Notes: a model not told the origin generated them from the sequence alone. Numbered from the stretch's first letter, positions 4,233-60,031 are shown. The stretch is DNA of 64,000 bases from an uncultured Rickettsiales bacterium (GCA_964539135.1 CAZIFG010000004.1:43250-107249), one strand, 5' to 3'. Program-made: numbers and translations.

Positions 4233-5624
4233 ATGTCAGAAGGCACCAAGATAGGGGAATACAAAGAAAATGCTGAGTTTAACGCAGCAGTAACATTAAA
4301 ACCAGAGACAGAAGGACTCAAAGCAACAAAGTTGGGAGAGCTTTCTGAATTTGAAAAAGGACTTCAAGAAGAAGACAATAACCCTAAAGGTAATGCCAAC
4401 GAGAGACAGTCGAATGCAACGCCCCTTAAACTAGGGAAAGAGAAAAACGGGTCAGAAGATTTATCGTTTGAACAAGCCATGTCAGGGGGGCTTGCAGAAT
4501 TTGAAGAGGATGAAATTGTAGAAGGAACAGTCCGAAGCATTGAAAAAGGCGGCGTTCTAATTGACATCAATTACAAATCCGACGGGTTTATTCTCAATAG
4601 CGAACTTTTAGATGACGAGGTTCTAAAACCTGGCGATAAGGTAAAAGTTCTGATTGAAAAATTAGAAACAAAAGAAGGCTATACCATTCTATCCAGAAAA
4701 AAAGCCATTGTAGAAGAAGCGTGGAATGAGCTTGTAGAGTGCAACAGATCCAAACAAACAGTGGCCATTAAAGTGGTTGGAAAAGTTCAAGGTGGATTGG
4801 TATCCGTTTACAAAGGCATTAAAGGATTTATTCCGGCGTCTCAAGCCTTGAAAGCAGAGTCCGATAAATTAGATGATTTCCTAGGACAAACCCTTCAAGT
4901 GGCGGTTCTCCAAGTAGATAGACGCAGACGAAAAGTGATTTTTTCTCATAAAATTGCCCAAAGCAAATTAAGCCGGCAAAATGCAGAAAAAACATTGGAT
5001 TCATTAGAAATTGGCGAAACAAGAACGGGTAAAGTCACCAGCGTTAAAGATTTTGGGGTGTTTGTAGATATTGGGGGCCTTGAAGGATTGGTTCACATTT
5101 CAGAGTTGTCATGGTCCAGAGTGAATCATCCCTCTGAGTATGTATCGCCTGGGGATGAAGTCAAAGTCTTTATTTTAGGGATTGATAAAGAAAACTCTAA
5201 AATTTCATTGGGCATGAAACAGCTGGAAGCCGATCCTTGGGTGAATGTATCTAATAAATACAAAGTAGGTCAATTGATTGAAGGCGAGATTACCAGGACC
5301 GCTGCCTTTGGCGCCTTTATTAAAATTGAGCAAAATTTAGAGGGACTCATTCATATTTCTGAACTTGCCAATGAGCATGTTGAAAAAGTAGAAGATGTTG
5401 TGAAGCCCAAACAAATTGTAACCGCGAGAATTATTAAATTGATTCCTGAGGAGCAAAAAATTGGCTTAAGCTTAAAGAGCAAACCAGAAGAAAAAGTGGT
5501 AGAGGCTCAACCTGCGCCTAAAAAGAAGTCCAACAGCAACATTATTGCGGAAGTGGGCGAAGATTCAAAACCAAACGGGATTAATATCAATTTCACACAG
5601 GTAGAAAGCGTAACTGCCAATTAA
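4233..5624 (+). CDS. rpsA: 30S ribosomal protein S1 (four S1 domains, acidic N-terminal extension)
   Basis: Repeated S1 OB-fold motifs (G.V..i...G..vdig....GfiH.SE). I chose ATG 4233 over the track GTG 4227 because the AAGGAGG box at 4219-4225 is 7 nt upstream of the ATG. Confidence 0.9.
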   Translation: MSEGTKIGEYKENAEFNAAVTLKPETEGLKATKLGELSEFEKGLQEEDNNPKGNANERQSNATPLKLGKEKNGSEDLSFEQAMSGGLAEFEEDEIVEGTVRSIEKGGVLIDINYKSDGFILNSELLDDEVLKPGDKVKVLIEKLETKEGYTILSRKKAIVEEAWNELVECNRSKQTVAIKVVGKVQGGLVSVYKGIKGFIPASQALKAESDKLDDFLGQTLQVAVLQVDRRRRKVIFSHKIAQSKLSRQNAEKTLDSLEIGETRTGKVTSVKDFGVFVDIGGLEGLVHISELSWSRVNHPSEYVSPGDEVKVFILGIDKENSKISLGMKQLEADPWVNVSNKYKVGQLIEGEITRTAAFGAFIKIEQNLEGLIHISELANEHVEKVEDVVKPKQIVTARIIKLIPEEQKIGLSLKSKPEEKVVEAQPAPKKKSNSNIIAEVGEDSKPNGININFTQVESVTAN

Positions 5625-8226: not shown

Positions 8227-8367
8227 GGGACTGTTGTGAAATGCCCACGTTTGGATCATATGTAAGGTATTCCGAGTTCGAAAGCCCGGAGTTTATTGTA
8301 ATAAATGAGGACTTGAGGACGAGGATAACACAGCAGATGACCAAAATAGGCGTTTTGCAACAGTCCC
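8227..8367 (+). mobile_element. MITE-like palindromic element, copy 1 (141 bp)
   Basis: Termini are GGGACTGTTGTGAAATGCC ... GGCGTTTTGCAACAGTCCC. It is flanked by a perfect 5-bp direct repeat AATTT (8222-8226 and 8368-8372). It contains no ORF and starts 3 nt after the ispD stop. Confidence 0.8.
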
Positions 8368-8437: not shown

Positions 8438-9022
8438 ATGTCATATCATAAAAAAATGATTGCAGCGAGAAAATCTACAAAATACAATGCCTTTATGACA
8501 ACTTTTTGTCAGGCCATAGGCATAAAAACAGAAAAGGCTAAAGGCGATTTGCATGACAATTTATCGATAGTGGTACAGATTATGCTAAAAGTACCGGAGT
8601 ACACAGGGGCTTCCGAGCGTGTCAAAAGATTATTAACGCCTGGGAATCTGGATGTCAGTCTGGAGTCAGAGCGCATTGATATGAAATGGCTGGCAGGAAG
8701 ATGGGTAAAACAGGATGGCATGAACTTAAAAAACGTATCGGATCATCTCCAAAATAATTTTGAAATTGTAATGTGGGCATTAGATCAAAATCCCAAAAGT
8801 TTTCAGTATGCATCTCAACGTTTGAGGGATTCAGGCAATGTAGCCAGTAAAGCCGTTCGTTTAGATGGCCTAAATTTAAAATGGGTGGGCGAATACTGTA
8901 AAAAAAGTGAGCACATTATTGTAGCGGCACTCCAGCAAAATCCAGAAAGTAAGGCCTTCATTTTAGAAGAGATGAAAAAAAATAAAACAGTTAAAGAGGC
9001 GCTAAAGAGGTTAATTAGTTAA
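8438..9022 (+). CDS. DUF4116-like repeat protein (orphan)
   Basis: Repeats of the pattern G.nLk.v...l....e.v..Al.qNp.sfqYAS (FQYASQRLRD..., AVRLDGLNLKWVG...IIVAALQQNPES). The 3' end overlaps the rpoN 3' end by 12 nt (convergent). Confidence 0.55.
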   Translation: MSYHKKMIAARKSTKYNAFMTTFCQAIGIKTEKAKGDLHDNLSIVVQIMLKVPEYTGASERVKRLLTPGNLDVSLESERIDMKWLAGRWVKQDGMNLKNVSDHLQNNFEIVMWALDQNPKSFQYASQRLRDSGNVASKAVRLDGLNLKWVGEYCKKSEHIIVAALQQNPESKAFILEEMKKNKTVKEALKRLIS

Positions 9023-10306
9023 AGCATGCTTTCTATACTTACACACTGTCCGTCTGGCAATGGGAATACCCAGGTCCTGAAGTTTTTGGGCGAGTTGGGC
9101 GTCACTATCCTGAGGAAATTGGGCTGCAAGTTCCTGAACATAACGGGTAAAAACAGCCTGGGTATGCCCAAAATAATTTCGAGGACATAAGGCACTGAGT
9201 GGCAAAACGCCAAAGGGCGTGCGAATATATTTGGCATGCACCAAACGCGAAATCGTAGAGGCTGAGACCTCCAGGTCAGCAGCGATGTCTTTCTGTAAAA
9301 GAGGCACTAAAAAATCGGGCCCTTTAGATAAAAACAAGGTCTGTTTAGCGGCCAAATAGTGGCCAAAGCGTTCCAATAAAGCCCCTCGTTTTTGAAGCGT
9401 TTCTATCCAAAGTTGAGCCTTATCCTGTTGAGCACGTAAAAAAGTGCGAGCGGCTTCATCCAAAGCGGGATCCTTCAGAATAGCCTCGTAATCGGAAGAC
9501 AGTTTAATCTGTGGGCCCTGAGACACTTCCAAACATCGAATTTTGGGCTGGTTGCCCTCAACATAAACCTCAAAAGAAGGCGTAATCGGTGTGGCGGTCG
9601 CAGCAGACGAAAAGGCAGCTCCGGGGTAAGGGGTCAGATTTTCTTTTAAATAGAGTAGGAGGCCCTCAACGGCTTCTTCAGATAAGCCATAATCTGATTC
9701 AAAAAGCGTAAAATTTTCAGCAGCCAAGGCCTCCAAATCATCTCGAACAACGTCTGTTAAGAGGGCTTTAAATTCAGGATCTTGATGCTCATGTCTGTCA
9801 ATTTGAAGCAAGAGACATTCTTTTAAGGTTCTAGCGCCTACCCCTTCAGGTTCCAAGCTTTGAACAATCGTTAAATAATCGCCAATCTTTCGAGGGGAAA
9901 TCTTAAATTTCTCGGCTAAAGCGTCTCGAATCGCAGGATAATCGGGTAAATAGCCTCTAGAGTCCAGATGCTCAATGAGGGTCGTGCAACAGGCATATGC
10001 AGTTGCCTCCAAAGAGAGGAGATTCAGTTGCGCCATTAAATGGTCATAAAGAGAGACCGTCTGCACGTCTTCAGCAAGCGCGGCAACATCTGCAGAAGAT
10101 GGGGATGAAGTTAAAGAAGCGGAAGAGAGTGTGGCAGGTAAAAACGGCCGCTCCAGTTCTAAAAAAACATTATCAGAAACAAGATCTTCGATGTCATGAA
10201 TCAATTGGCCATAGGGAAGCTGTAGGGTTTTGAGTGCCTGAATAAGCTTGGGGCTGAGCCGCTGTTTCAAAGAAAGGGTTTGTGTCGGGGTAAGGTGAAG
10301 GTTCAT
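9011..10306 (-). CDS. rpoN: RNA polymerase sigma-54 factor
   Basis: N-terminal region I (LKQRLSPKLIQALKTLQLP) and a C-terminal RpoN box, ARRTVCKYR. Confidence 0.9.
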   Translation of the reverse strand: MNLHLTPTQTLSLKQRLSPKLIQALKTLQLPYGQLIHDIEDLVSDNVFLELERPFLPATLSSASLTSSPSSADVAALAEDVQTVSLYDHLMAQLNLLSLEATAYACCTTLIEHLDSRGYLPDYPAIRDALAEKFKISPRKIGDYLTIVQSLEPEGVGARTLKECLLLQIDRHEHQDPEFKALLTDVVRDDLEALAAENFTLFESDYGLSEEAVEGLLLYLKENLTPYPGAAFSSAATATPITPSFEVYVEGNQPKIRCLEVSQGPQIKLSSDYEAILKDPALDEAARTFLRAQQDKAQLWIETLQKRGALLERFGHYLAAKQTLFLSKGPDFLVPLLQKDIAADLEVSASTISRLVHAKYIRTPFGVLPLSALCPRNYFGHTQAVFTRYVQELAAQFPQDSDAQLAQKLQDLGIPIARRTVCKYRKHALTN

Positions 10307-10311
10307 CCCAT

Positions 10312-11313
10312 TTAATCCGGAATGGCCAAATAAGGCGTAGCTGTAATGGTTTTGGGATCTGGACAGCGTCCCGCTTGGTAGGAAAAATAAGCCGCCGCAC
10401 CAATCATGCCAGCATTATCGGTACACAGAGACGCTGGGGCAACTGATAAGGCAATGCCGGTCGCAGCACATCGGTCTTGAAAGGCTTGAACCAAGGTTCG
10501 GTTGGCCGTGACACCACCACACAGAGATAGAGAGGAGATGTCGTAGTGTTCACAAGCCGAAAGGGCCTTGGCGGTGAGTGTATCAATAACAGCCGCCTGA
10601 AAGCTTGCCGCAAGATCTGCTATGGGAAGGGCATTAGGATCCAGCGCCTTAACCTGCTGAAGCACAGCCGTTTTAAGGCCTGAAAAGCTAAAATCCAGGC
10701 CTTTGCCTTTAAGGGCTCTCGGAAAATGAAAGGCCTTAGGATTTCCAGTCTGGGCCGCCCTCTCAATATGAGGCCCCCCTGGATATCCAAATCCCAAGAG
10801 TCGGGCCACTTTATCAAAGGCTTCACCGGCAGCATCGTCGCGGGTTTCGCTGAGAAGTTCAAAGGTCATAGGCGCTGGGATTTTGACAAGAGCGGTGTGG
10901 CCGCCAGAGGCAATGAGAGAAATAAAGGGGAAAGCGGGGGGTGTTTCGGTTAAAAAAAGCGCATAAATATGACCTTGCATATGATTGACCCCAATAAGGG
11001 GTACATTTAAAACAGTAGACAAGGTTTTGGCAACAGCAAGTCCAACCAACAAGGAACCTTCAAGTCCAGGTCCGTATGTAACGCCAATGGCATCTATATC
11101 TTGAAGAGTAATGCCGGCGTCTTTTAAAACATGATCCATCAAGTCATGGATGATTTCCGTATGCATGCGTGAGGCGAGTTCCGGAACGATGCCGCCATAT
11201 TCTGCATGGGTTTTAACTTGAGACGACAAAATGCTCGAAAGCAGGCGTATGCCATCTTCAACAATGGCAATTCCTGTATCATCGCAGGACGTTTCAATCG
11301 CTAAAATTTTCAT
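10312..11313 (-). CDS. tsaD: tRNA N6-adenosine threonylcarbamoyltransferase
   Basis: MKILAIETSCDDTGIAIV and GVNHMQGH motifs. I trimmed the start from the track value 11433 to ATG 11313. The 40-aa upstream extension has no homology signal and would overlap the topA promoter and start. Confidence 0.9.
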   Translation of the reverse strand: MKILAIETSCDDTGIAIVEDGIRLLSSILSSQVKTHAEYGGIVPELASRMHTEIIHDLMDHVLKDAGITLQDIDAIGVTYGPGLEGSLLVGLAVAKTLSTVLNVPLIGVNHMQGHIYALFLTETPPAFPFISLIASGGHTALVKIPAPMTFELLSETRDDAAGEAFDKVARLLGFGYPGGPHIERAAQTGNPKAFHFPRALKGKGLDFSFSGLKTAVLQQVKALDPNALPIADLAASFQAAVIDTLTAKALSACEHYDISSLSLCGGVTANRTLVQAFQDRCAATGIALSVAPASLCTDNAGMIGAAAYFSYQAGRCPDPKTITATPYLAIPD

Positions 11314-11328
11314 GGCACCAGTGTAGCA
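11313..11328 (+). promoter_or_regulatory. Sigma-54-like -24/-12 motif TGGCAC-N5-TAGCA
   Basis: TGGCACcagtgTAGCA has the GG and GC at consensus spacing, with one mismatch to TGGCAC-N5-TTGCA. It faces topA and abuts the tsaD start codon. Confidence 0.25.
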
Positions 11329-11348
11329 TTTTTTTTCGACGGGTTCTA

Positions 11349-11377
11349 TTGACAAGGATTCGAGCCGCTTGCATAAT
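11349..11377 (+). promoter_or_regulatory. Sigma-70-type promoter of topA (TTGACA-17-CATAAT)
   Basis: Perfect -35 TTGACA at 11349-11354, a 17-nt spacer, and -10 CATAAT at 11372-11377. The topA ATG is only 7 nt downstream and no SD is present. Confidence 0.5.
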
Positions 11378-11383
11378 ACGAAG

Positions 11384-13486
11384 ATGTCAAGATATTTAGT
11401 CATTGTAGAGTCACCTGCAAAGTGCAAAACCATCGAAAAGTTCTTAGGAAGCGACTATGAGTTAGCGGCCTCTTATGGTCACGTCAGAGATCTTCCACAG
11501 AAGAAAATAGGGGTAGACATTGCACACAATTTTGAACCCACGTATCAGGCCATGCCAGACAAAAAAAAGGTCCTCAAAGACCTCAAGGATAAATCCAAAA
11601 AAGCAGAGATTGTATACGTCGCAACTGACCCTGACCGAGAAGGGGAAGCCATTGCCTGGCACATTATTGAAGGCATTCAAATTCCCGAAGAAAAAGTAAA
11701 GCGCATTGTCTTCAATGAAATCACCAAAACAGCGGTTCAAAATGCCATTCAACATTCGCGATTATTGGACATTGATTTGGTCAATGCCCAACAAGCACGA
11801 CGAATTTTAGACCGACTCATTGGCTATAAATTAAGCCCAGTTTTAGCTAAGAAAATCAGAAAGGGCCTCAGTGCAGGACGTGTACAATCGGTAGCGGTGA
11901 AAATTATTTGTGATCGTGAGCGGGCCATTACGGCTTTTATTCCCGAAGAGTATTGGAATATAGATGTTACCTTTTCGAAAGAAGACAATCAAAAACAAAC
12001 CTTTCGCGCCCGTTTAGTTGGCGATGGGGAAGAAGACAGTAAAAAAACAGTCTCTAATGAAGCCGATGCCCTTAACATTAAATCGCATTTAGAAAAGGCC
12101 CGTTATGAGATTAAAAAAATAAAAAAATCCCAAGCCCGACGCAATCCGGCGGCGCCGTTTATCACCTCAACCTTGCAGCAAGAGGCGTCTCGAAAATTAG
12201 GCTGGACGGCGAAAAAAACCATGATGGTGGCCCAACAACTTTATGAAGGGGTAACTCTGAATGGCGAATCGACGGGACTTATTACCTACATGAGAACCGA
12301 TTCCATTCGTGTGTCGGATGAGGCCAAAAAGGCGGCTTCCGATTACATCAAAAAACAGTATGGTGCCAAATATTTAGGAGAAGAAAAGGCCGCAAAAAAA
12401 GAGAAAAAGAATGTCCAAGATGCTCACGAAGCCATTCGCCCCTCTTACATTGAATTTAGTCCCGCGGACATTTCAAAACAGCTCTCTGCAGATCATTTAA
12501 AGCTCTATAAATTGGTTTGGAACCGGTTTATGGCCTCGCAAATGAGTGCCTCTTTAAGTGATAGAACCCAGGTGAATGTCGAAGCCGTTTCAGGGGATCA
12601 AAGTTATTGGTTGCGCGCGACAGGATCTATTGTGATTTTTGATGGCTTTACAAAAGTGTATACAGAAGACAAAGATCATGAAGGCGACGAAGATGAAAAA
12701 GAAGGATTTTTACCGCCCTTAGAAGAAGGCGATAAGCTCAAAAAAGAGGCGGTAGAGGCCCTTCAAAAATTCACACAACCTCCGGCTCGATTTACAGAGG
12801 CCTCCTTGGTTAAGGAATTGGAATTGCAAGGCATAGGCAGACCGTCTACGTATGCGCCCACCATCTCTACGATTTTAGACCGAGGCTACGTCGAGAGAGA
12901 GGCCAAAGTCCTCAAGCCCACAGAGTTGGGCTTTTTAGTCATTGAAAAATTAGAAGCTTACTTTGATCAAATTGTGGACCTTGCGTTCACGGCCAATATG
13001 GAAACAAAGCTGGATGAAATAGCAGAAGGCAAGCATGCCTGGCAAGGGGTTTTGGGCGAATTCTACGATCCTTTTGCCAAAAAAATTGACATTGCCTACA
13101 AGGAAATGGAAAAAATAAACACCGACAAACCCACAGATGAAAAATGCGATAAGTGTGGCAGTGACATGGTTTTGAAGCAGGGCCGATTTGGGGCGTTTAT
13201 TGCCTGCTCCAATTTTCCTGAGTGTAAAACCACAAAGTCCGTGGTGCAATCCTTAGGAGTAAATTGTGCAAAATGTGGCAGTCCTTTAGTGATGAAAAAA
13301 AGTAAAAGAGGTAAGGTCTTTTATGGCTGTTCTGGATTCCCGAACTGTACTTACGCTGCCTGGGACAAGCCCATTGCGGAGCCCTGCCCCAAATGTAAGA
13401 AGCCATTTGTATTGGAAAAGGCAGCCAAAAAAGGGAATGCCTACAAATATTGTGACGACTGTCACTGGAAAGAAAGCGACGATTAA
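11384..13486 (+). CDS. topA: DNA topoisomerase I
   Basis: Toprim N-terminus LVIVESPAKCKTIEKFLG, active-site region TYMRTDS, and three C-terminal C4 zinc ribbons. I prefer ATG 11384 over the track TTG 11369. Confidence 0.92.
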   Translation: MSRYLVIVESPAKCKTIEKFLGSDYELAASYGHVRDLPQKKIGVDIAHNFEPTYQAMPDKKKVLKDLKDKSKKAEIVYVATDPDREGEAIAWHIIEGIQIPEEKVKRIVFNEITKTAVQNAIQHSRLLDIDLVNAQQARRILDRLIGYKLSPVLAKKIRKGLSAGRVQSVAVKIICDRERAITAFIPEEYWNIDVTFSKEDNQKQTFRARLVGDGEEDSKKTVSNEADALNIKSHLEKARYEIKKIKKSQARRNPAAPFITSTLQQEASRKLGWTAKKTMMVAQQLYEGVTLNGESTGLITYMRTDSIRVSDEAKKAASDYIKKQYGAKYLGEEKAAKKEKKNVQDAHEAIRPSYIEFSPADISKQLSADHLKLYKLVWNRFMASQMSASLSDRTQVNVEAVSGDQSYWLRATGSIVIFDGFTKVYTEDKDHEGDEDEKEGFLPPLEEGDKLKKEAVEALQKFTQPPARFTEASLVKELELQGIGRPSTYAPTISTILDRGYVEREAKVLKPTELGFLVIEKLEAYFDQIVDLAFTANMETKLDEIAEGKHAWQGVLGEFYDPFAKKIDIAYKEMEKINTDKPTDEKCDKCGSDMVLKQGRFGAFIACSNFPECKTTKSVVQSLGVNCAKCGSPLVMKKSKRGKVFYGCSGFPNCTYAAWDKPIAEPCPKCKKPFVLEKAAKKGNAYKYCDDCHWKESDD

Positions 13487-22039: not shown

Positions 22040-22176
22040 GGGGCTGTTGCGAAATGCCTACGTTTGGATCATATGAAAGGCATTCCGAGTCCGAAAGCTC
22101 TTATATATCATAAATGAGGACTTGAGGACGAGGATAACACAGCAGATGGCCAAAATAGGCATTTCGCAACAGTCCC
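22040..22176 (+). mobile_element. MITE-like palindromic element, copy 2 (137 bp)
   Basis: GGGGCTGTTGCGAAATGCCTA ... TAGGCATTTCGCAACAGTCCC gives 21 bp of TIR, perfect except for one position. The right half is nearly identical to copy 1. The track ORF 22108..22473(-) is read-through of this repeat. Confidence 0.8.
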
Positions 22177-38277: not shown

Positions 38278-38820
38278 TTAAACAGTCAAAATTTCTTTTT
38301 CTTTTTTAAGAACCAATTCGTCTATTTTTTTAGAGAAAGATTCTGTAGAGGCCTGAACCTCTTCCTGCATTTTTTTAGACTCATCTTCTGTCAGTTCTTT
38401 TGCTTTTTCACTGACTTTGATTTTATCAATAGCATCCCGACGAACATTGCGTAGCGCCACTTTACCTTCTTCAGCGTAAGCATGAAGGACTTTGACCAAT
38501 TCTTTACGGCGTTCTTCGGTAAGTTCCGGTAAACGGATCCGAATCATACCCCCATCTGTATTGGGATTAAGTCCCAGTTGAGAGGTTTGAATGGCCTTTT
38601 CAATGCTTTTAATGGCACCTTGATCAAAGACATTCAAGACAAGCGTTGTGGCTTCAGGCGCAGAAACAGACGCCAATTGCTGAAGCGGAACTTTAGATCC
38701 ATAATACTCGACAACAACGCCGCTCAACATATCGGGATTGGCGCGATTGGTTCTTAACGTGGCAATATGCAGTTTAAAAGAGTCCACGGTTTTTTGCATT
38801 TTTTCATTGAGTTCGCTCAT
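38278..38820 (-). CDS. frr: Ribosome recycling factor
   Basis: 180 aa. Typical RRF sequence: [18 protein letters not shown] ... [16 protein letters not shown]. Confidence 0.93.
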
Positions 38821-39539
38821 TTCTGATCTCCAATATAAGTACCCACTTTTTCTTGTAAAAGGGCCTTTTGAATATTACCTTCTTTCGAGAGGTTAAACAC
38901 CACAATCGGAATATTATTTTCCTGGCTTAAGGTTAGTGCCGTCGTATCCATAACGTGTAAATTTCGAGTTAATACATCTTGATAAGTTAAGGACTCAAAA
39001 AACTGAGCATCGGCATGTTTCATGGGGTCTTTATCATAGACGCCATCTACCTTAGTGGCTTTAAAAATAACATCTGCCTTAATTTCAGCGGCACGCAAGG
39101 CAGCCGTCGTATCGGTTGTAAAATAGGGATTTCCGGTACCGCCTGCAAAAATCACAATACGACCTTTTTCCATATGGCGAATAGATCGTTGCAAAATAAA
39201 GGTTTCGGCAACTTCTCGAACATGAAGCGCGCTTTGAACCCGAGAGGGGACATCCACGCGGCTAAGGGCATCCTGAAGAGCCAAGGCATTCATAATCGTT
39301 GCAAGCATGCCTGTGTAGTCAGCAGTCACTCTATCCATGCCATTTTCAGAAGCAGAAAGCCCCCTAAAAATATTGCCACCGCCGATTACAATGGCCAAAT
39401 CGATACCCAATTGATAAGCCGATTTAATTTCATTGGCTAAAAACAAAAGAAAATGAGGGTCTATCCCATAGTCTCTTTCGCCTTTAAAAGCTTCTCCACT
39501 GAGTTTAAGTAAAACGCGTTTATATTTAATTCGTGTCAT
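38817..39539 (-). CDS. pyrH: UMP kinase
   Basis: [11 protein letters not shown] and [21 protein letters not shown]. Confidence 0.93.
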
Positions 39540-39581
39540 AATGGCGATATTCTATCAGCTTAAAAATAGAATAACAATAAT

Positions 39582-40571
39582 GAGACTGTTGCGACATGCC
39601 TACGTTTGGATCAGACAGATGGCTTTGGAATGAGATGTTGGTAGGCCTTTTGAACCAGCATAAAGACATATGCATCTCCTCCTTTATCAGGATGGTGTTG
39701 AAGCATTAATGCTTTGTAGGCACGTTTAATCGTATTGACAGAGGCGGTGGAAGGAAGGCTGAGAATACGAAAGGCTTTTGCATCAGTCATTTCTGGTGGA
39801 TCCAATGGAGACATAAATTCGGAGACAAAAGGAAGGGCAGAGGGAACGCCATAATGAGTGATGCCAAGTGTGACAAGATCAGGAGCAGCTGTGCGTGTCG
39901 CCTTATAATGCCAGGATAAATCACGTGGCGGCGTAAATTCATGAACCCCATAAGCACGGTCAACACCTTTGCGAACGATAGGATCTATAATAGACTTGGT
40001 TAAAAAGACAAAAGAAACCAACATAAAGGTAAGAAAGAGCGTTTCCGGGGTAGCCTCATGGAGGGCATGGCCGAGGTAGGCAATAAACACGGCAACTTTA
40101 AAGGCCGGATGTGTTGGGGGGGGTGCTGAAGGCGAGGTAAGGGCATCAATATCTGTTCTAAGTGTGGGGCGACTGGATAACACATAGGCAGAAGACGATA
40201 AAAAAATCTGCTTTAAGGCAGAGAGTCGATCTGTAAAAATACGAACTTCATAAGGGGGGATCCCGCCTTTATAGTGAGACAGCATCTTAAGGTGCCGAGA
40301 AAAACTATCAAATAAAGCATCACATTTGAAGTCCTTATAAGTTAGTTTTGCCCGTTCAGTAAGATCCTTCAAAGTCGGGGTTCTATTTCCCCCTTCCAGC
40401 ATAAAAAAGGAAAGCAAGGTTGAAATATAAAGCTTTTCAAGCTCAGAATAGGATTTAGATTCACAAACAGGGGCTAAAGAAAGGACTTTAAACATAATCG
40501 GCTCCTAGAAAGTTTCGTTATTCTTATTTGGGTTATCGAGATTTGGAATAAAATAATTTCACAACAGTCTC
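39582..40571 (+). mobile_element. 990-bp composite version of the repeat family. Matching TIR ends enclose one passenger ORF (the J-domain protein).
   Basis: The left end at 39582-39614 is GAGACTGTTGCGACATGCCTACGTTTGGATCAG. The right end at 40540-40571 is ...GGAATAAAATAATTTCACAACAGTCTC. Both tips carry the same variant, GAGAC/GTCTC. The flanking 5-mers are ATAAT and ATATT. Confidence 0.65.
39611..40495 (-). CDS. Orphan membrane protein with a C-terminal J domain (DnaJ-like, HPD motif)
   Basis: C-terminus FRILSLPSTASVNTIKRAYKALMLQHHPDKGGDAYVFMLVQKAYQHL. There is a central hydrophobic segment, and AGGAG lies 6 nt upstream of the ATG. The stop codon lies in the left repeat end. Confidence 0.65.
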   Translation of the reverse strand: MFKVLSLAPVCESKSYSELEKLYISTLLSFFMLEGGNRTPTLKDLTERAKLTYKDFKCDALFDSFSRHLKMLSHYKGGIPPYEVRIFTDRLSALKQIFLSSSAYVLSSRPTLRTDIDALTSPSAPPPTHPAFKVAVFIAYLGHALHEATPETLFLTFMLVSFVFLTKSIIDPIVRKGVDRAYGVHEFTPPRDLSWHYKATRTAAPDLVTLGITHYGVPSALPFVSEFMSPLDPPEMTDAKAFRILSLPSTASVNTIKRAYKALMLQHHPDKGGDAYVFMLVQKAYQHLIPKPSV

Positions 40572-40574
40572 ATA

Positions 40575-40603
40575 TTGGTGATACGTCGTATTTATGGCAT
40601 AAT
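40575..40603 (+). promoter_or_regulatory. Candidate promoter of rseP (TTGGTG-17-CATAAT)
   Basis: -35 at 40575-40580 and -10 at 40598-40603. The rseP ATG (40613) is 9 nt after the -10 and has no SD. The -35 begins 3 nt after the repeat end. Confidence 0.4.
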
Positions 40604-40612
40604 AAAACCACT

Positions 40613-41692
40613 ATGTTAATAATCATCACCATTATCGCCTTAGGGCTTGTTATATTTATTCATGAATTGGGCCATCTATGGGCGGCAAAAGCCTGTGGTA
40701 TTGGCGTCCATGAGTTCAGTATTGGAATGGGACCTAAGGTCTTAGGCAAAAGAATAAACGGAACAGACTATAATTTAAGACTATTGCCCTTCGGGGGATT
40801 TGTGAAATTGGCGGGCTTAGATGAAGACAAAGAGGCACCTCCTATTGCGGATCACCTAAATTACAGAAAGAAGCCACTCTACAAACGCTTTATCGTCATT
40901 GTGGCCGGATCTGTTATGAATATTATCCTGGGTTATGTTCTGTTTACGGGCGTGTCTTTTGGAATGGGGATTCCGGAACCGACAGGAATCATTGAACATG
41001 TGGTCAACAATACACCAGCTGCTCAGGTGGGCCTAAAAGAAGGCGATGAAATTATAAAGGTAGATGCTAAACCCTTGGCCAAAGAAAATTTAGTGAAGGT
41101 GATCCAGCGCACAAAAGGCAAAGAAATGAATTTAACCATCAAACGAGACAATAAAATCTTTGACGTTAAAATTACACCTGAAAAAAAATCAGAGAAAAAG
41201 TGGATTTTAGGGCTGATGTTAAAAATTAACCATCAAAAAATCCCCCTTTTGGAGGCCTGTGTTCAAGGCGGAGTCCAAACCTTAGATCAAATTAAAATGA
41301 TGCTCGTGAGCGTCAAACTATTGGTGACAGGACAGGTTTCCGTCTCTCAAATGACAGGGCCTGTAGGCATTGTTCAATTTGCATCGTCTCAATTGGACAG
41401 TGGATTCTTTAGATTTTTAAACGTCATGGCCTTAATTACCTTGAGTTTAGGGATTATGAATTTACTTCCCTTTCCCGTATTAGATGGTGGGCACTTGATG
41501 TTTTTACTCCTTGAGGGACTAAGAGGAAAACCCCTGTCAGAACGGGTAGAGCTTTGGATTGCCAATATTGGCGCGGGGCTTTTAATTACATTGATGGCCT
41601 TTATTATTTTAAATGATGTTATAAAATGGAAAGAAAGAGGCGAGTTATTCAAACGCTTTCAATCAAGTATAATAAAAGAGAAAGGGAAGTAG
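40613..41692 (+). CDS. rseP: RIP zinc metalloprotease RseP (site-2 protease, M50)
   Basis: HELGHLWAAK, a PDZ domain, and NLLPFPVLDGGH. Confidence 0.9.
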   Translation: MLIIITIIALGLVIFIHELGHLWAAKACGIGVHEFSIGMGPKVLGKRINGTDYNLRLLPFGGFVKLAGLDEDKEAPPIADHLNYRKKPLYKRFIVIVAGSVMNIILGYVLFTGVSFGMGIPEPTGIIEHVVNNTPAAQVGLKEGDEIIKVDAKPLAKENLVKVIQRTKGKEMNLTIKRDNKIFDVKITPEKKSEKKWILGLMLKINHQKIPLLEACVQGGVQTLDQIKMMLVSVKLLVTGQVSVSQMTGPVGIVQFASSQLDSGFFRFLNVMALITLSLGIMNLLPFPVLDGGHLMFLLLEGLRGKPLSERVELWIANIGAGLLITLMAFIILNDVIKWKERGELFKRFQSSIIKEKGK

Positions 41693-44748: not shown

Positions 44749-45684
44749 TTAGGCTGCGGTAATCTTTTTTAAAACCTCAGATAACTTAAGGGTATCTGTG
44801 GCATGTTGTTTGACCATATGGTGGGAAGGTGCGTATTTTTTTTGAAAAAAGGATTTCCCCCATTTTTTATGGTGAGCTAAAAAAAAGACATAATAATGAA
44901 CACTCATAGAATTTTGAGTAAGCTGGTGTGCAAGAGAATGAGAGAGATCTAAGACCGCTTCTTTTTGACTCAAAGGAGCGGGTTTTAAAAGAAGGGCATC
45001 CATGCCAGACAGTAGGTCCTGAAACTGGGAAATAGAAGCGGATAAAATAATGGTTTTAGCCGTATCAATGAGGTGAGTTAAACATTCGAGTTGAATCGCG
45101 AATAGGGCCTCAACAGTTGATTTCCACGCGGGTAATCTAAACAGAGTTTGAATTGCATGGGTATTCGATGTTAGAATCAAGGTCAGTCCAATAATCGCAT
45201 ATTGCCGGTGTTCCAGGGGATCTTGAAGCTTGAGGCTCTCTTTTAAAGCTTGCATCAAGAGGAGAGATAAATCAGGCGGATTGGGATATTTACAGGCGCC
45301 CACAAGGATCAGTAAAATATCGCGCTTTTTAGATAGATTAGAGGTAGTCGTATAAATTTTGATGAAATTTTTAAGTGTAGACAGTGCTTTTTGACTGAGA
45401 ACGGTAGGGGTTAGCTGTCTCTCTAGGCGTTTAAGTCCATCTTCATTAAAATTAGAGGGGATGTGGTGTGCAGGGTCTGGAAGATCGTCAATGGAAACAA
45501 GCGGAACAGATTCAATAAAAGAGGGAATGCCAACAGAATCATACGGGGGTAGAGACGCATCAGATTCTACCTGATCCAGTGCAGAGTGAATACGTTTACC
45601 AAATTCTTCCTTTGATTTTTTCTGTTTCTGATCCCTTTTTCGGGAATTGAGACGATAAATATCGCCTGAAATGCCGGATACCAT
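44749..45684 (-). CDS. Orphan hypothetical protein (311 aa, helical-repeat-like)
   Basis: ORF with a strong SD (GAAGGAGG, 5 nt upstream of the ATG). It begins 18 nt from repeat copy 4. No recognisable motif. Confidence 0.5.
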   Translation of the reverse strand: MVSGISGDIYRLNSRKRDQKQKKSKEEFGKRIHSALDQVESDASLPPYDSVGIPSFIESVPLVSIDDLPDPAHHIPSNFNEDGLKRLERQLTPTVLSQKALSTLKNFIKIYTTTSNLSKKRDILLILVGACKYPNPPDLSLLLMQALKESLKLQDPLEHRQYAIIGLTLILTSNTHAIQTLFRLPAWKSTVEALFAIQLECLTHLIDTAKTIILSASISQFQDLLSGMDALLLKPAPLSQKEAVLDLSHSLAHQLTQNSMSVHYYVFFLAHHKKWGKSFFQKKYAPSHHMVKQHATDTLKLSEVLKKITAA

Positions 45685-45701: not shown

Positions 45702-45843
45702 GGGACTGTTGCTAAACGCCTATTTTGGCCATCTGCGGTGTTATCCTCGTCCTCAAGTCCTCATTTATGATATATAAATTCAGGGCTTTCGGACTAGCAC
45801 TGCCTTGCAGCTGATCCAAACGTATGAATTTCCCAACAGTCCC
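45702..45843 (-). mobile_element. MITE-like palindromic element, copy 4 (142 bp, inverted orientation)
   Basis: The reverse complement aligns over its full length to copies 1, 2 and 5. The flanking 5-mers are ATTAT and ATCAT. Confidence 0.8.
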
Positions 45844-58626: not shown

Positions 58627-58760
58627 GGGACTGTTGCGAAAGTCCTATGTTTGGATCAGCTGCAAGGCATTCCGAGTTCAAAAGGCCTTATATATCATAA
58701 ATAAGGTAAGGACGAGGATAACACAGCAGATGGCCAAAATAGGCGTTTCACAACAGTCCC
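58627..58760 (+). mobile_element. MITE-like palindromic element, copy 5 (134 bp)
   Basis: Full-length alignment to the other copies, with a 6-7 nt internal deletion. The flanking 5-mers are CCTCT and CCTTT. Its right end contains the last codons and the stop of rarA. Confidence 0.8.
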
Positions 58761-60031
58761 CCTTTATTTTTGAGAGATCTGTAATAGTCCAAGCGCTTTA
58801 AAATACTGGCTTCGTAGCCACGATTAGAGGGGGTATAAAAAGAAGGGCATCCAGGCGCATACACTTGGTCACAAATGGCATGCTCATAATCATGAGGATA
58901 GAGGTAAGGGGCAGACGAAAGTGCTTCTGCAGATAACGGTCTATGGGAATCTCGAAGATACTCGGGCATAGAATAAGGTGTGGTTTTAACATACTGAAGT
59001 GCCTGATTAATGGCCACATAGGCGGCATTGCTTTTGGGCGCCGCAGCAAAATAAGTGGTGACCTGGCTAAGCGGGATGCGAATTTCAGGCATGCCTACAA
59101 AGCGGGCGGTTTCAAGAAGTGCGCTGGCAAGCACTAAGGCATGAGGATCAGCATTGCCAATATCTTCGGAAGCAAAAATAAGAAGGCGCCGGACAATAAA
59201 AAGGGGATCTTCACCCTGATGCAGCAATTGCGCTAAAAAATAAAGCGCAGCATCGGGATCCGAACCCCGCATGCTTTTAATATAAGCCGAAATTAAATCA
59301 TAATGGTCATCATCGCGAAGGCCTTGACCTGTTTGTAAGGGGAGTGTATTGAGATAGTCCACAGATAAAGTGGTGTCTGTGCTCGAAAGATGGGCCAGTT
59401 CGATGATGTTAAGTAGAGACCGCGCATCACCCTGCGCATGAGAAACACACCAGTCTATAGCCTCTTGTGAAAGCGTGAGTCCCAAGTTTTGGGTTGCTTT
59501 TTGAGTGAGGGTTTCCAGATCTTCTTTTTGAAGCGGATGAAGTTCAAAAATATGGCAGCGCGAAATGAGACCTGAAATCACAGAAAAAAAAGGATTTTCA
59601 GTCGTGGCCCCAATAAGAGTTAAGAGACCAGATTCGACGCTGGGCAACAGAACGTCTTGTTGTGTTTTGGTGAAGCGGTGAATTTCATCAATAAAAAGAA
59701 GGGAGCTTTGCCCCAGGCTGGCATGATGTGTGGCTTCAATCTGTATTTTTTTTAAATCCGATATACTACCCGTGACGGCATTTAGGGCCACAAAATGGGA
59801 CTGTGTGCTGATAGAGAGCAATCGGGCAAGAGACGTTTTACCGCATCCAGGGCGTCCCCAAAGAATCATAGATAAAAGCTGTTTGCGTTCTATCATACGG
59901 CGAATCGGGCCCTTAGGGCCTAAAAGATGCTGCTGACCGACGTAATCCTCCAGTTTAGAAGGACTGAGCCTATACGCAAGTGGCGATGGCTTTTGAGTCT
60001 GAAACAAAGAGGGCGTATCGTGAAAAGACAC
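58748..60031 (-). CDS. rarA: Replication-associated recombination protein A (RarA/MgsA)
   Basis: AAA+ Walker A GRPGCGKTS, Walker B LFIDEIHRF, and a MgsA C-terminal domain. Confidence 0.9.
   Translation of the reverse strand: MSFHDTPSLFQTQKPSPLAYRLSPSKLEDYVGQQHLLGPKGPIRRMIERKQLLSMILWGRPGCGKTSLARLLSISTQSHFVALNAVTGSISDLKKIQIEATHHASLGQSSLLFIDEIHRFTKTQQDVLLPSVESGLLTLIGATTENPFFSVISGLISRCHIFELHPLQKEDLETLTQKATQNLGLTLSQEAIDWCVSHAQGDARSLLNIIELAHLSSTDTTLSVDYLNTLPLQTGQGLRDDDHYDLISAYIKSMRGSDPDAALYFLAQLLHQGEDPLFIVRRLLIFASEDIGNADPHALVLASALLETARFVGMPEIRIPLSQVTTYFAAAPKSNAAYVAINQALQYVKTTPYSMPEYLRDSHRPLSAEALSSAPYLYPHDYEHAICDQVYAPGCPSFYTPSNRGYEASILKRLDYYRSLKNKGGLL

Follow-up and report, generated by a model that had tools for sequence, protein, structure and literature searches.

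A 990-bp element with the ends of a short MITE family carries a gene for a membrane J-domain protein between pyrH and rseP in an uncultivated bacterium

How did a gene for a J-domain protein come to lie between pyrH and rseP, bracketed by the ends of a short transposable element? The question is raised by a 64,000-nucleotide stretch of DNA from an uncultured bacterium (GCA_964539135.1, CAZIFG010000004.1:43250-107249; referred to below as the window), in which a 990-bp element (39582-40571) is situated between the divergently transcribed genes pyrH and rseP. In an initial annotation of this DNA, the 990 bp looked like a transposase-less element that mobilises a cargo gene, and they were likened to a mobile insertion cassette (MIC). 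Our analysis supports this description. We consider it probable, although well short of certain, that the 990 bp are a non-autonomous element of the MIC type with the ends of a family of miniature inverted-repeat transposable elements (MITEs), no transposase and one passenger gene. The junction contains the following features.

38817-39539, minus strand: pyrH (TIGR02075, 322 bits)
39549-39577, minus strand: promoter-like site of the pyrH operon (TTGTTA, 17 nt, TG-TAGAAT), intact, just outside the left tip of the element
39577-39581: left copy of the target-site duplication, ATAAT (4/5 identical to ATATT)
39582-39627, plus strand: left end of the element, a ~33-bp terminal inverted repeat with subterminal sequence homologous to the short MITE copies
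40556-40571, plus strand: right tip of the element, ATTTCACAACAGTCTC, ~16 nt recognisably belonging to the family
40572-40576: right copy of the target-site duplication, ATATT, flanking the outer tip
40613-41692, plus strand: rseP (TIGR00054, 303 bits)

The profile scores of pyrH and rseP confirmed that the element sits in their divergent junction. Terminal sequences of the MITE family were found in inverted orientation at both of its ends. The left end, which starts with GAGACTGTTGCGACATGCCTACGTTTGGATCAG (39582-39614), was detected by an nhmmer profile built from four short copies of the family (profile positions 3-44, E=7e-6). It corresponds to an interval of the repeat family D3 (39581-39626, 80% to the reference), and its 46 bp are identical to each of the short copies at 34-36 positions. 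The right end closes with ...TTTCACAACAGTCTC at position 40571. There, the last 16 nucleotides (nt) match the family at 12-14 of 16 positions and the next 15 nt at 6 of 15, which is chance level, so that the right end is ~16 nt long and not ~32 bp. Thus, the two MITE-family ends proposed initially hold for the left side, where the 33 bp extend into a match of 46 bp, whereas the right one had been drawn too long. A 15-mer of the right tip (at most one mismatch) occurs six times in the window, each time at an element tip, and was not found in 100 shuffles; therefore, the match of the right tip is not due to chance.

Both tips of the long element carry the same variant. The second position of the tip is A/T on both sides (GAGAC/GTCTC), whereas it is G/C in 8/8 tips of the short copies, as expected from the co-variation that had been noticed before. 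According to a rough estimate, the chance that such a symmetric change arises independently at mirrored positions is ~5%. The interior of the long element shows no relation to that of the short copies, and no remnants of inner arms were detected inside it by the MITE profile. With its length of 990 bp, its ORF (open reading frame) of 294 amino acids (aa) and its unrelated interior, the element is a derivative of the family and not a MITE in the strict sense (less than ~300 bp, no coding capacity, shared interior).

The family itself consists of foldback elements of ~140 bp. Four short copies (134-142 bp) are present in the window, which amounts to ~1 per 15 kb.

8227-8367, plus strand: short copy M1, 141 bp, duplication AATTT/AATTT
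22040-22176, plus strand: short copy M2, 137 bp, duplication AAGGT/AAAAT
45702-45843, minus strand: short copy M3, 142 bp, duplication ATGAT/ATAAT
58627-58760, plus strand: short copy M4, 134 bp, duplication CCTCT/CCTTT

All four are intergenic, 84-90% identical to one another, and predicted to fold into near full-length hairpins (z = -4.3 to -7.0; 0/200 shuffles as good). In the Rfam gathering scan the repeat matched no known RNA family.

The left and right outer flanks of each of these four copies and of the long element were compared with each other. At k=5, 20 of 25 positions match, and the match rate at the other tested values of k (2-10) is 27-50%. Random 5-mer pairs gave a mean of 6.5/25 and AT-rich pairs a mean of 7.7/25; none of 200,000 trials (none of 100,000 with the AT-rich null) reached 20 (P<1e-5). 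Since the match is specific to k=5, the family transposes with a 5-bp duplication. Tips of the IS3 type (TG...CA) with flanking T and A were also considered and rejected, because the duplication signal appears only if the element starts at GGGAC. The 5-mers flanking the long element read ATAAT and ATATT as initially given, and its duplication is slightly decayed, like that of most other family members. A duplication of 4/5 at the outer tips is predicted by a single insertion and not by two independent fragments.

The second line of evidence is an empty site in related genomes. The nearest relatives in the databases share 48% RseP identity, and those that are named belong to Candidatus Margulisiibacteriota or Marinamargulisbacteria; the host is an uncultivated, Margulisbacteria-like bacterium of a poorly sampled lineage. 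Three relatives (five contigs, L006-L010) keep the gene order dprA-dxr-cdsA-uppS-frr-pyrH / rseP-ftsE-ftsX-surA. Their pyrH-rseP spacer measures 80 bp and is without a gene, and the MITE profile found no repeat in these contigs; a J-domain gene at this locus in repeat-free relatives, which would have spoken against a mobile origin, was not encountered. The spacer in the window measures 1073 bp, and after subtraction of the 990 bp and one copy of the duplication 78 bp are left. The agreement between 80 bp in the relatives and the reconstructed 78 bp indicates that the 990 bp are one insertion. The left tip abuts the promoter-like site of pyrH, which places the insertion immediately upstream of the pyrH -35 box and leaves the promoter intact. 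The duplication (4/5) and the insertion relative to the empty site of distant relatives together form a transposition footprint of the kind left by MICs. Three independent lines, the duplication, the empty site and the tip variant, point to one element, in agreement with the earlier proposal that both ends belong together. The two conditions named beforehand as refuting this proposal, a J-domain gene at the locus in relatives that lack the repeat and a derivation of the ends from separate truncated copies, both turned out in its favour to the extent that they could be examined.

The reconstructed 78-bp spacer contains a block adjoining pyrH, TATTCTATCAG, that is common to L006, L008 and L010. 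Read on the pyrH strand, this block is the extended -10 element (TGnTAGAAT) of the promoter-like site 39577-39549. It lies at 39549-39560 in the window and at ~4929-4940 in the three contigs, and it is conserved at the DNA level despite an RseP identity of 48%. It probably serves, under strong constraint, as a promoter element for the pyrH-frr-uppS-cdsA-dxr operon.

The passenger gene occupies most of the interior of the element and is described by the following features.

39611-40495, minus strand: cargo gene for a 294-aa membrane J-domain protein, the sole long ORF in the element
40502-40506, minus strand: Shine-Dalgarno sequence AGGAG (ctcct on the plus strand), inside the element, 6 nt upstream of the ATG
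39791-40495, minus strand: orphan N-terminal part of 235 aa, with no detectable homologue
39986-40042, minus strand: predicted transmembrane segment TLFLTFMLVSFVFLTKSII, aa 152-170 (Kyte-Doolittle 19-residue mean 2.01)
39626-39787, minus strand: J domain (PF00226), aa 237-290, with the HPD motif

As had been noted, the gene ends within the left repeat: its last five codons and its TGA stop codon belong to the repeat, the TGA being repeat positions 30-32. The predicted central hydrophobic segment and the C-terminal J domain were likewise recovered. The Pfam DnaJ family (PF00226) matched aa 242-288 with E=3.5e-10 and 40.3 bits (cutoff 27.8). The motif HHPDKGG at ~aa 268-274 aligns with HPDKGG of Tim14. 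Tim14/Pam18 (2guz_A) was also the best match among solved structures (E=1.6e-4), with an alignment that reaches through helix III. The best NCBIfam match was the J region of DjlA (NF006948; aa 239-271), which scored 29.6 bits against a cutoff of 162; a match of this strength, confined to the J region, shows that the protein is not a DjlA orthologue. A weaker hydrophobic stretch (aa 131-146) precedes the predicted membrane segment. The net positive residues that follow this segment suggest a topology in which the J domain would be cytoplasmic.

The N-terminal 235 aa had no counterpart in any search. No Pfam or PHROG family matched them, and an exhaustive phmmer search of 1.84 billion representatives returned only the protein itself and one spurious match, a seven-fold PPC-domain repeat protein (P0135) whose score was inflated by its repeats. 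A word-indexed search of 5.8 billion clusters gave only the protein itself and matches to the J domain.

The coding signal, by contrast with the other frames, is strong. The gene scores 0.255 bits/codon in frame 0 versus -0.36 and -0.97 in the other frames, and host genes score 0.265 +/- 0.073. For the orphan N-terminal part the corresponding values are 0.281 versus -0.30 and -1.00. The codon usage of the gene is at the 42nd percentile of 52 host genes. Its GC content (0.437) and its GC content at third codon positions (0.369) are close to those of the host (0.424 and 0.383, respectively), and a foreign origin by composition was rejected, since all three measures are host-typical. A search for a sigma-70-like promoter ahead of the gene found none. 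Apart from the cargo gene, no ORF of at least 60 aa with a coding signal was found in the element.

The element thus has its passenger gene between inverted repeats of the insertion sequence/transposon (IS/Tn) type, and no transposase is encoded in the ORF according to Pfam, NCBIfam, PHROG and PADLOC. Neither was a phage or defence family match obtained for the cargo. In NCBIfam and PHROG nothing but the J domain is matched, the sole PADLOC row is a methyltransferase with 9.9 bits, and the other Pfam row, OrgC, is below threshold (E=0.039, 14.8 bits versus a cutoff of 27). No dnaK gene was found in the window after the candidates were checked. Judged by its sequence, the cargo looks like an ordinary J-domain protein of type III whose codon usage resembles that of the host, and the earlier designation as a potential Hsp70 co-chaperone mimic goes beyond the evidence.

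The cargo protein was found, either identical or with two substitutions, on contigs from four samples (ERZ3430527, SRR7369924, SRR7369911 and SRR17828886), always at this locus. The most divergent strain differs from the window at 14 of 12,382 positions, two of which are in the cargo gene. An empty-site allele was not seen in the four samples.

These observations can be combined into the following scenario. A transposase supplied in trans (none was seen here) would have recognised both GAGAC tips and inserted the 990-bp cassette once, by a 5-bp staggered cut as is the signature of Tn3-family-like elements, into an ancestral spacer of ~78 bp that separated the divergent operons of pyrH and rseP. 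By landing immediately upstream of the pyrH -35 box, the insertion allowed both operons to keep their promoters. In each of the four populations sampled the insertion is fixed; it is probably old and has probably lost its mobility. The cargo gene brings its own Shine-Dalgarno sequence, and its last five codons and its stop codon are borrowed from the left repeat. Its product would be a membrane-anchored type III protein that binds DnaK through the HPD loop of the C-terminal J domain and triggers the ATPase of DnaK at the membrane, with the choice of client or location left to the lineage-specific N-terminal domain.

Several observations weigh against this scenario. The duplication of the long element is imperfect (4/5), and a match of this quality is expected by chance in ~3-6% of cases in AT-rich DNA. 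Family sequence is kept at the right end over 16 nt only. The relatives are very distant (48% RseP identity), so that their spacer can be called an ancestral "empty site" only loosely. The cargo protein occurs at one locus only, on four near-identical strain contigs, among ~15 billion proteins; a MIC mobilised in trans would be expected as the same cassette at more than one site, and here no second copy of the cargo was present. Within ~71 kb of sequence from this genome, we saw no transposase. Two exact-pattern probes for the family were run against a collection of 185,579 species genomes, which does not include the host genome: the end motif CTGTTGNGANANNNNNANGTTTGGATCA gave 0 matches there and 0 in viral contigs, and the conserved interior GGACGAGGATAACACNGCAGATG gave 0 matches in the same genomes. 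With regard to the gene, both single-nucleotide polymorphisms between the strains are non-synonymous (D206A, F162L). A frame of 294 codons would stay open by chance with a probability of 28% at 5% and of 9% at 10% random neutral substitution, which makes its intactness weak evidence of selection. Finally, a model made with AlphaFold2 from the single sequence, with no alignment, reached a mean pLDDT (predicted local distance difference test) of 38.6, and no structural inference was drawn from it. Because neither a transposase nor a second copy nor an empty-site allele was found, the mobility of the cassette as a unit is something that we infer.

The main rival explanation follows from this point. 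A short copy of the family may have inserted into the pyrH-rseP spacer with a 5-bp duplication, and its interior may later have been replaced or interrupted by ~900 bp with the J-domain gene, either by illegitimate recombination or by a nested insertion followed by a deletion; the cassette would then never have moved as a unit. Such a capture in situ would leave a footprint with identical tips, duplication and spacer arithmetic. It also agrees with the single copy of the cassette in all data searched, with the fully host-like codon usage, which is expected for DNA of the same genome, and with the erosion of the right end to 16 nt, as might follow a messy rearrangement. However, it takes two events where the MIC-type reading needs one, and some mechanism must place a complete gene together with its Shine-Dalgarno sequence precisely between two retained tips. 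The shared tip variant fits a distinct cassette lineage somewhat better, although a variant short copy could carry the variant as well. Moreover, cassettes of such design are known to transpose (PMC4133298). On balance, we regard a capture in situ as possible, if rather doubtful.

It was also considered that the ORF is not a working gene but a decaying or fortuitous frame in an old element, in which only the remnant of the J domain is meaningful. This would explain why the N-terminal 235 aa have no homologue, why the structure model is not confident and why no sigma-70-like promoter was found upstream, and it would be compatible with two non-synonymous differences between strains and with an open frame whose survival is only weakly improbable. 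These points are opposed by the strong frame-specific coding signal, which includes the orphan part, by the AGGAG sequence 6 nt before the ATG, by the intact HPD motif with a Pfam score above the cutoff, and by the conservation of the gene (99.8%) in four samples. Orphan proteins are, in addition, to be expected where the nearest relatives share 48% RseP identity. A non-functional frame is therefore unlikely.

That two independent short copies, each with its inner part lost, flank a resident J-domain gene would account for the unequal ends (46 bp on the left versus 16 nt on the right) and for the frequency of short copies (~1 per 15 kb), but it is highly improbable given the geneless spacer of the relatives, the 78 bp (versus 80 bp) that remain after removal from tip to tip, the 4/5 match of the outer flanks, which would not result from two separate insertions, the shared tip variant and the lack of inner-arm remnants by profile. 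Equally far-fetched is a bolder extension of the MIC-type reading, in which the cargo is not incidental and the MITE-derived cassette is specialised in a J-domain protein commandeering host DnaK for the benefit of the element, for example for the assembly or disassembly of a transposition complex or for rewiring membrane proteostasis next to rseP; the symmetric GAGAC tips would then mark a distinct, separately mobilised cassette lineage, a notion to which we give very little credence. If this extension were true, the cargo would be the first transposon-borne Hsp70 co-chaperone and the cassette would represent a new host manipulation by non-autonomous elements.

Further traces of the MITE family were sought outside the window. 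The sole metagenome match to the end motif was on a JGI contig (L004, Ga0210403_10041640), where 41 nt (515-555) match the left arm of the repeat and the MITE profile gives E=4e-5, nearly as good as for the long element. We put this match down to coincidence, since a regulator/TPR reading frame of an unrelated, GC-rich organism runs through it without a break and it has no inverted partner. Its profile score shows that matches of ~40 nt need context before they can be trusted. A BLAST search of plasmids with a short copy (distant mode, E up to 10) gave no match and hence no assignment of the ends to an IS/Tn family, and no further family copies were found in the 6.8 kb beyond the left edge of the window. 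Just beyond this edge, the contig L012 encodes another poorly characterised protein of this lineage, 806 aa long (9534-11954), with only a faint armadillo-repeat match.

The two arms of the short copies are not equally conserved. The right half is 90-96% identical between pairs of copies and the left half 76-85%, and the inverted pair I1 is 95% identical. In the long element, 46 bp are preserved from the left arm, which is the less conserved one, but only 16 nt from the right arm. The asymmetry could be due to a promoter directed outward, to a small RNA or to a subterminal site at which a transposase binds.

Short copies of the family also lie at gene borders. The right tip of M4 (58748-58760) supplies the last three codons and the TGA to the ORF 58748-60031 on the minus strand, a gene for a RarA/MgsA-like ATPase (Pfam MgsA_C); this donation of a stop codon is of the same kind as that in the J-domain gene. 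M1 starts 3 bp past the stop codon of ispD (8223), and directly downstream of M1 lies a gene for a 194-aa protein with two DUF4116 repeats (8438-9022, plus strand). A 311-aa ORF without a Pfam family (44749-45684, minus strand) has its start codon 18 bp from M3. Two independent Logan assemblies (L012 1-72 and L014 1-72, corresponding to window 8227-8298) stop inside M1. Assemblies ending in M1 indicate that the repeat breaks short-read assemblies of this organism, and its copy number in metagenome-assembled genomes is therefore probably underestimated.

Gene shuttling by transposase-less cassettes is best known from Bacillus, Xanthomonas and Pseudomonas, and the element described here would extend it to an under-sampled lineage allied to Margulisbacteria, with a very clean footprint made up of the ends, the 5-bp duplication and an empty site conserved in relatives. 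The locus documents how the final codons of a gene, stop codon included, can come from the end of a repeat, and it draws attention to an orphan membrane protein with a J domain that is a candidate for a DnaK adaptor specific to this lineage. It is also a warning for annotation, since short-read assemblies break at the repeat, which is located in promoter spacers and at gene ends. Gene-carrying elements without a transposase are of a known kind, and the current understanding of transposition or of chaperones is left unchanged. A full-text search of a limited literature library found no J-domain gene as the cargo of such an element, which is not proof of novelty, and nothing on MITEs in Margulisbacteria.

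With respect to its cargo, the element can be compared with several groups of J-domain proteins. Bacterial DjlA and mitochondrial Tim14/Pam18 (type III) resemble the cargo protein in that a membrane segment precedes a compact J domain, which is C-terminal and has a loop of the HPDKGG type. Nevertheless, the cargo is not an orthologue of either, having a unique N-terminal part of 235 aa and a gene located in a cassette with transposon ends. Phages and mobile elements may encode J domains that engage host DnaK, for example Rki of phage RB43. For the cargo protein, the PHROG matches are restricted to the J domain and concern families without a known function. Its codon usage is that of the host, and nothing links it to a phage.

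With respect to its ends, the element invites comparison with the Tn3 family. Inverted repeats of the Tn3 type are ~38 bp long, with a GGGG tip and an inner TAAG. The element and its family have tips that read GGGAC or GAGAC, an imperfect repeat of ~33 bp with the inner sequence ACGTTTGG, and no terminal or inner TAAG was seen in them. The AT-rich 5-bp duplications (AATTT, ATAAT, ATGAT) have the same length as those of Tn3-derived elements (PMC4133298, PMC4337579). The duplication length fits a descent from the Tn3 lineage, which is not established.

The MICs, such as MIC231 of Bacillus cereus and the Xanthomonas MICs with Tn3-type inverted repeats (PMC4337579), consist of passenger genes between IS/Tn inverted repeats and encode no transposase, as is the case here. 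In both, a cognate transposase is presumed to act in trans, and target duplications delimit the element. The Xanthomonas MICs carry genes for transcription activator-like effectors and other effectors and are flanked by 5-bp duplications (PMC4337579). Unlike for the MICs, no cognate transposase or autonomous parent is known for the element described here, which is present as a single copy. Its ends come from a MITE family of an uncultivated Margulisbacteria-like lineage, it carries a gene for a J-domain co-chaperone instead of one for an effector, for resistance or for a peptidase, and it is 0.99 kb long as compared with 3-19 kb for many of the Xanthomonas MICs.

In Pseudomonas, the TIME/TIME-RES pair comprises a short Tn3-derived MITE and a 1186-bp derivative with one gene, flanked by AT-rich 5-bp repeats (PMC4133298). 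TIME-RES was caught transposing experimentally (PMC4133298), whereas the mobility of the present element is deduced from its footprint only, and TIME-RES carries a resolvase and a res site, which are related to transposition, whereas the cargo here has no link to transposition. In its architecture, however, TIME/TIME-RES resembles the present system even more closely than the MICs do, because in both a short multicopy MITE is accompanied by a one-gene derivative of ~1 kb that shares its inverted repeats and some subterminal sequence.

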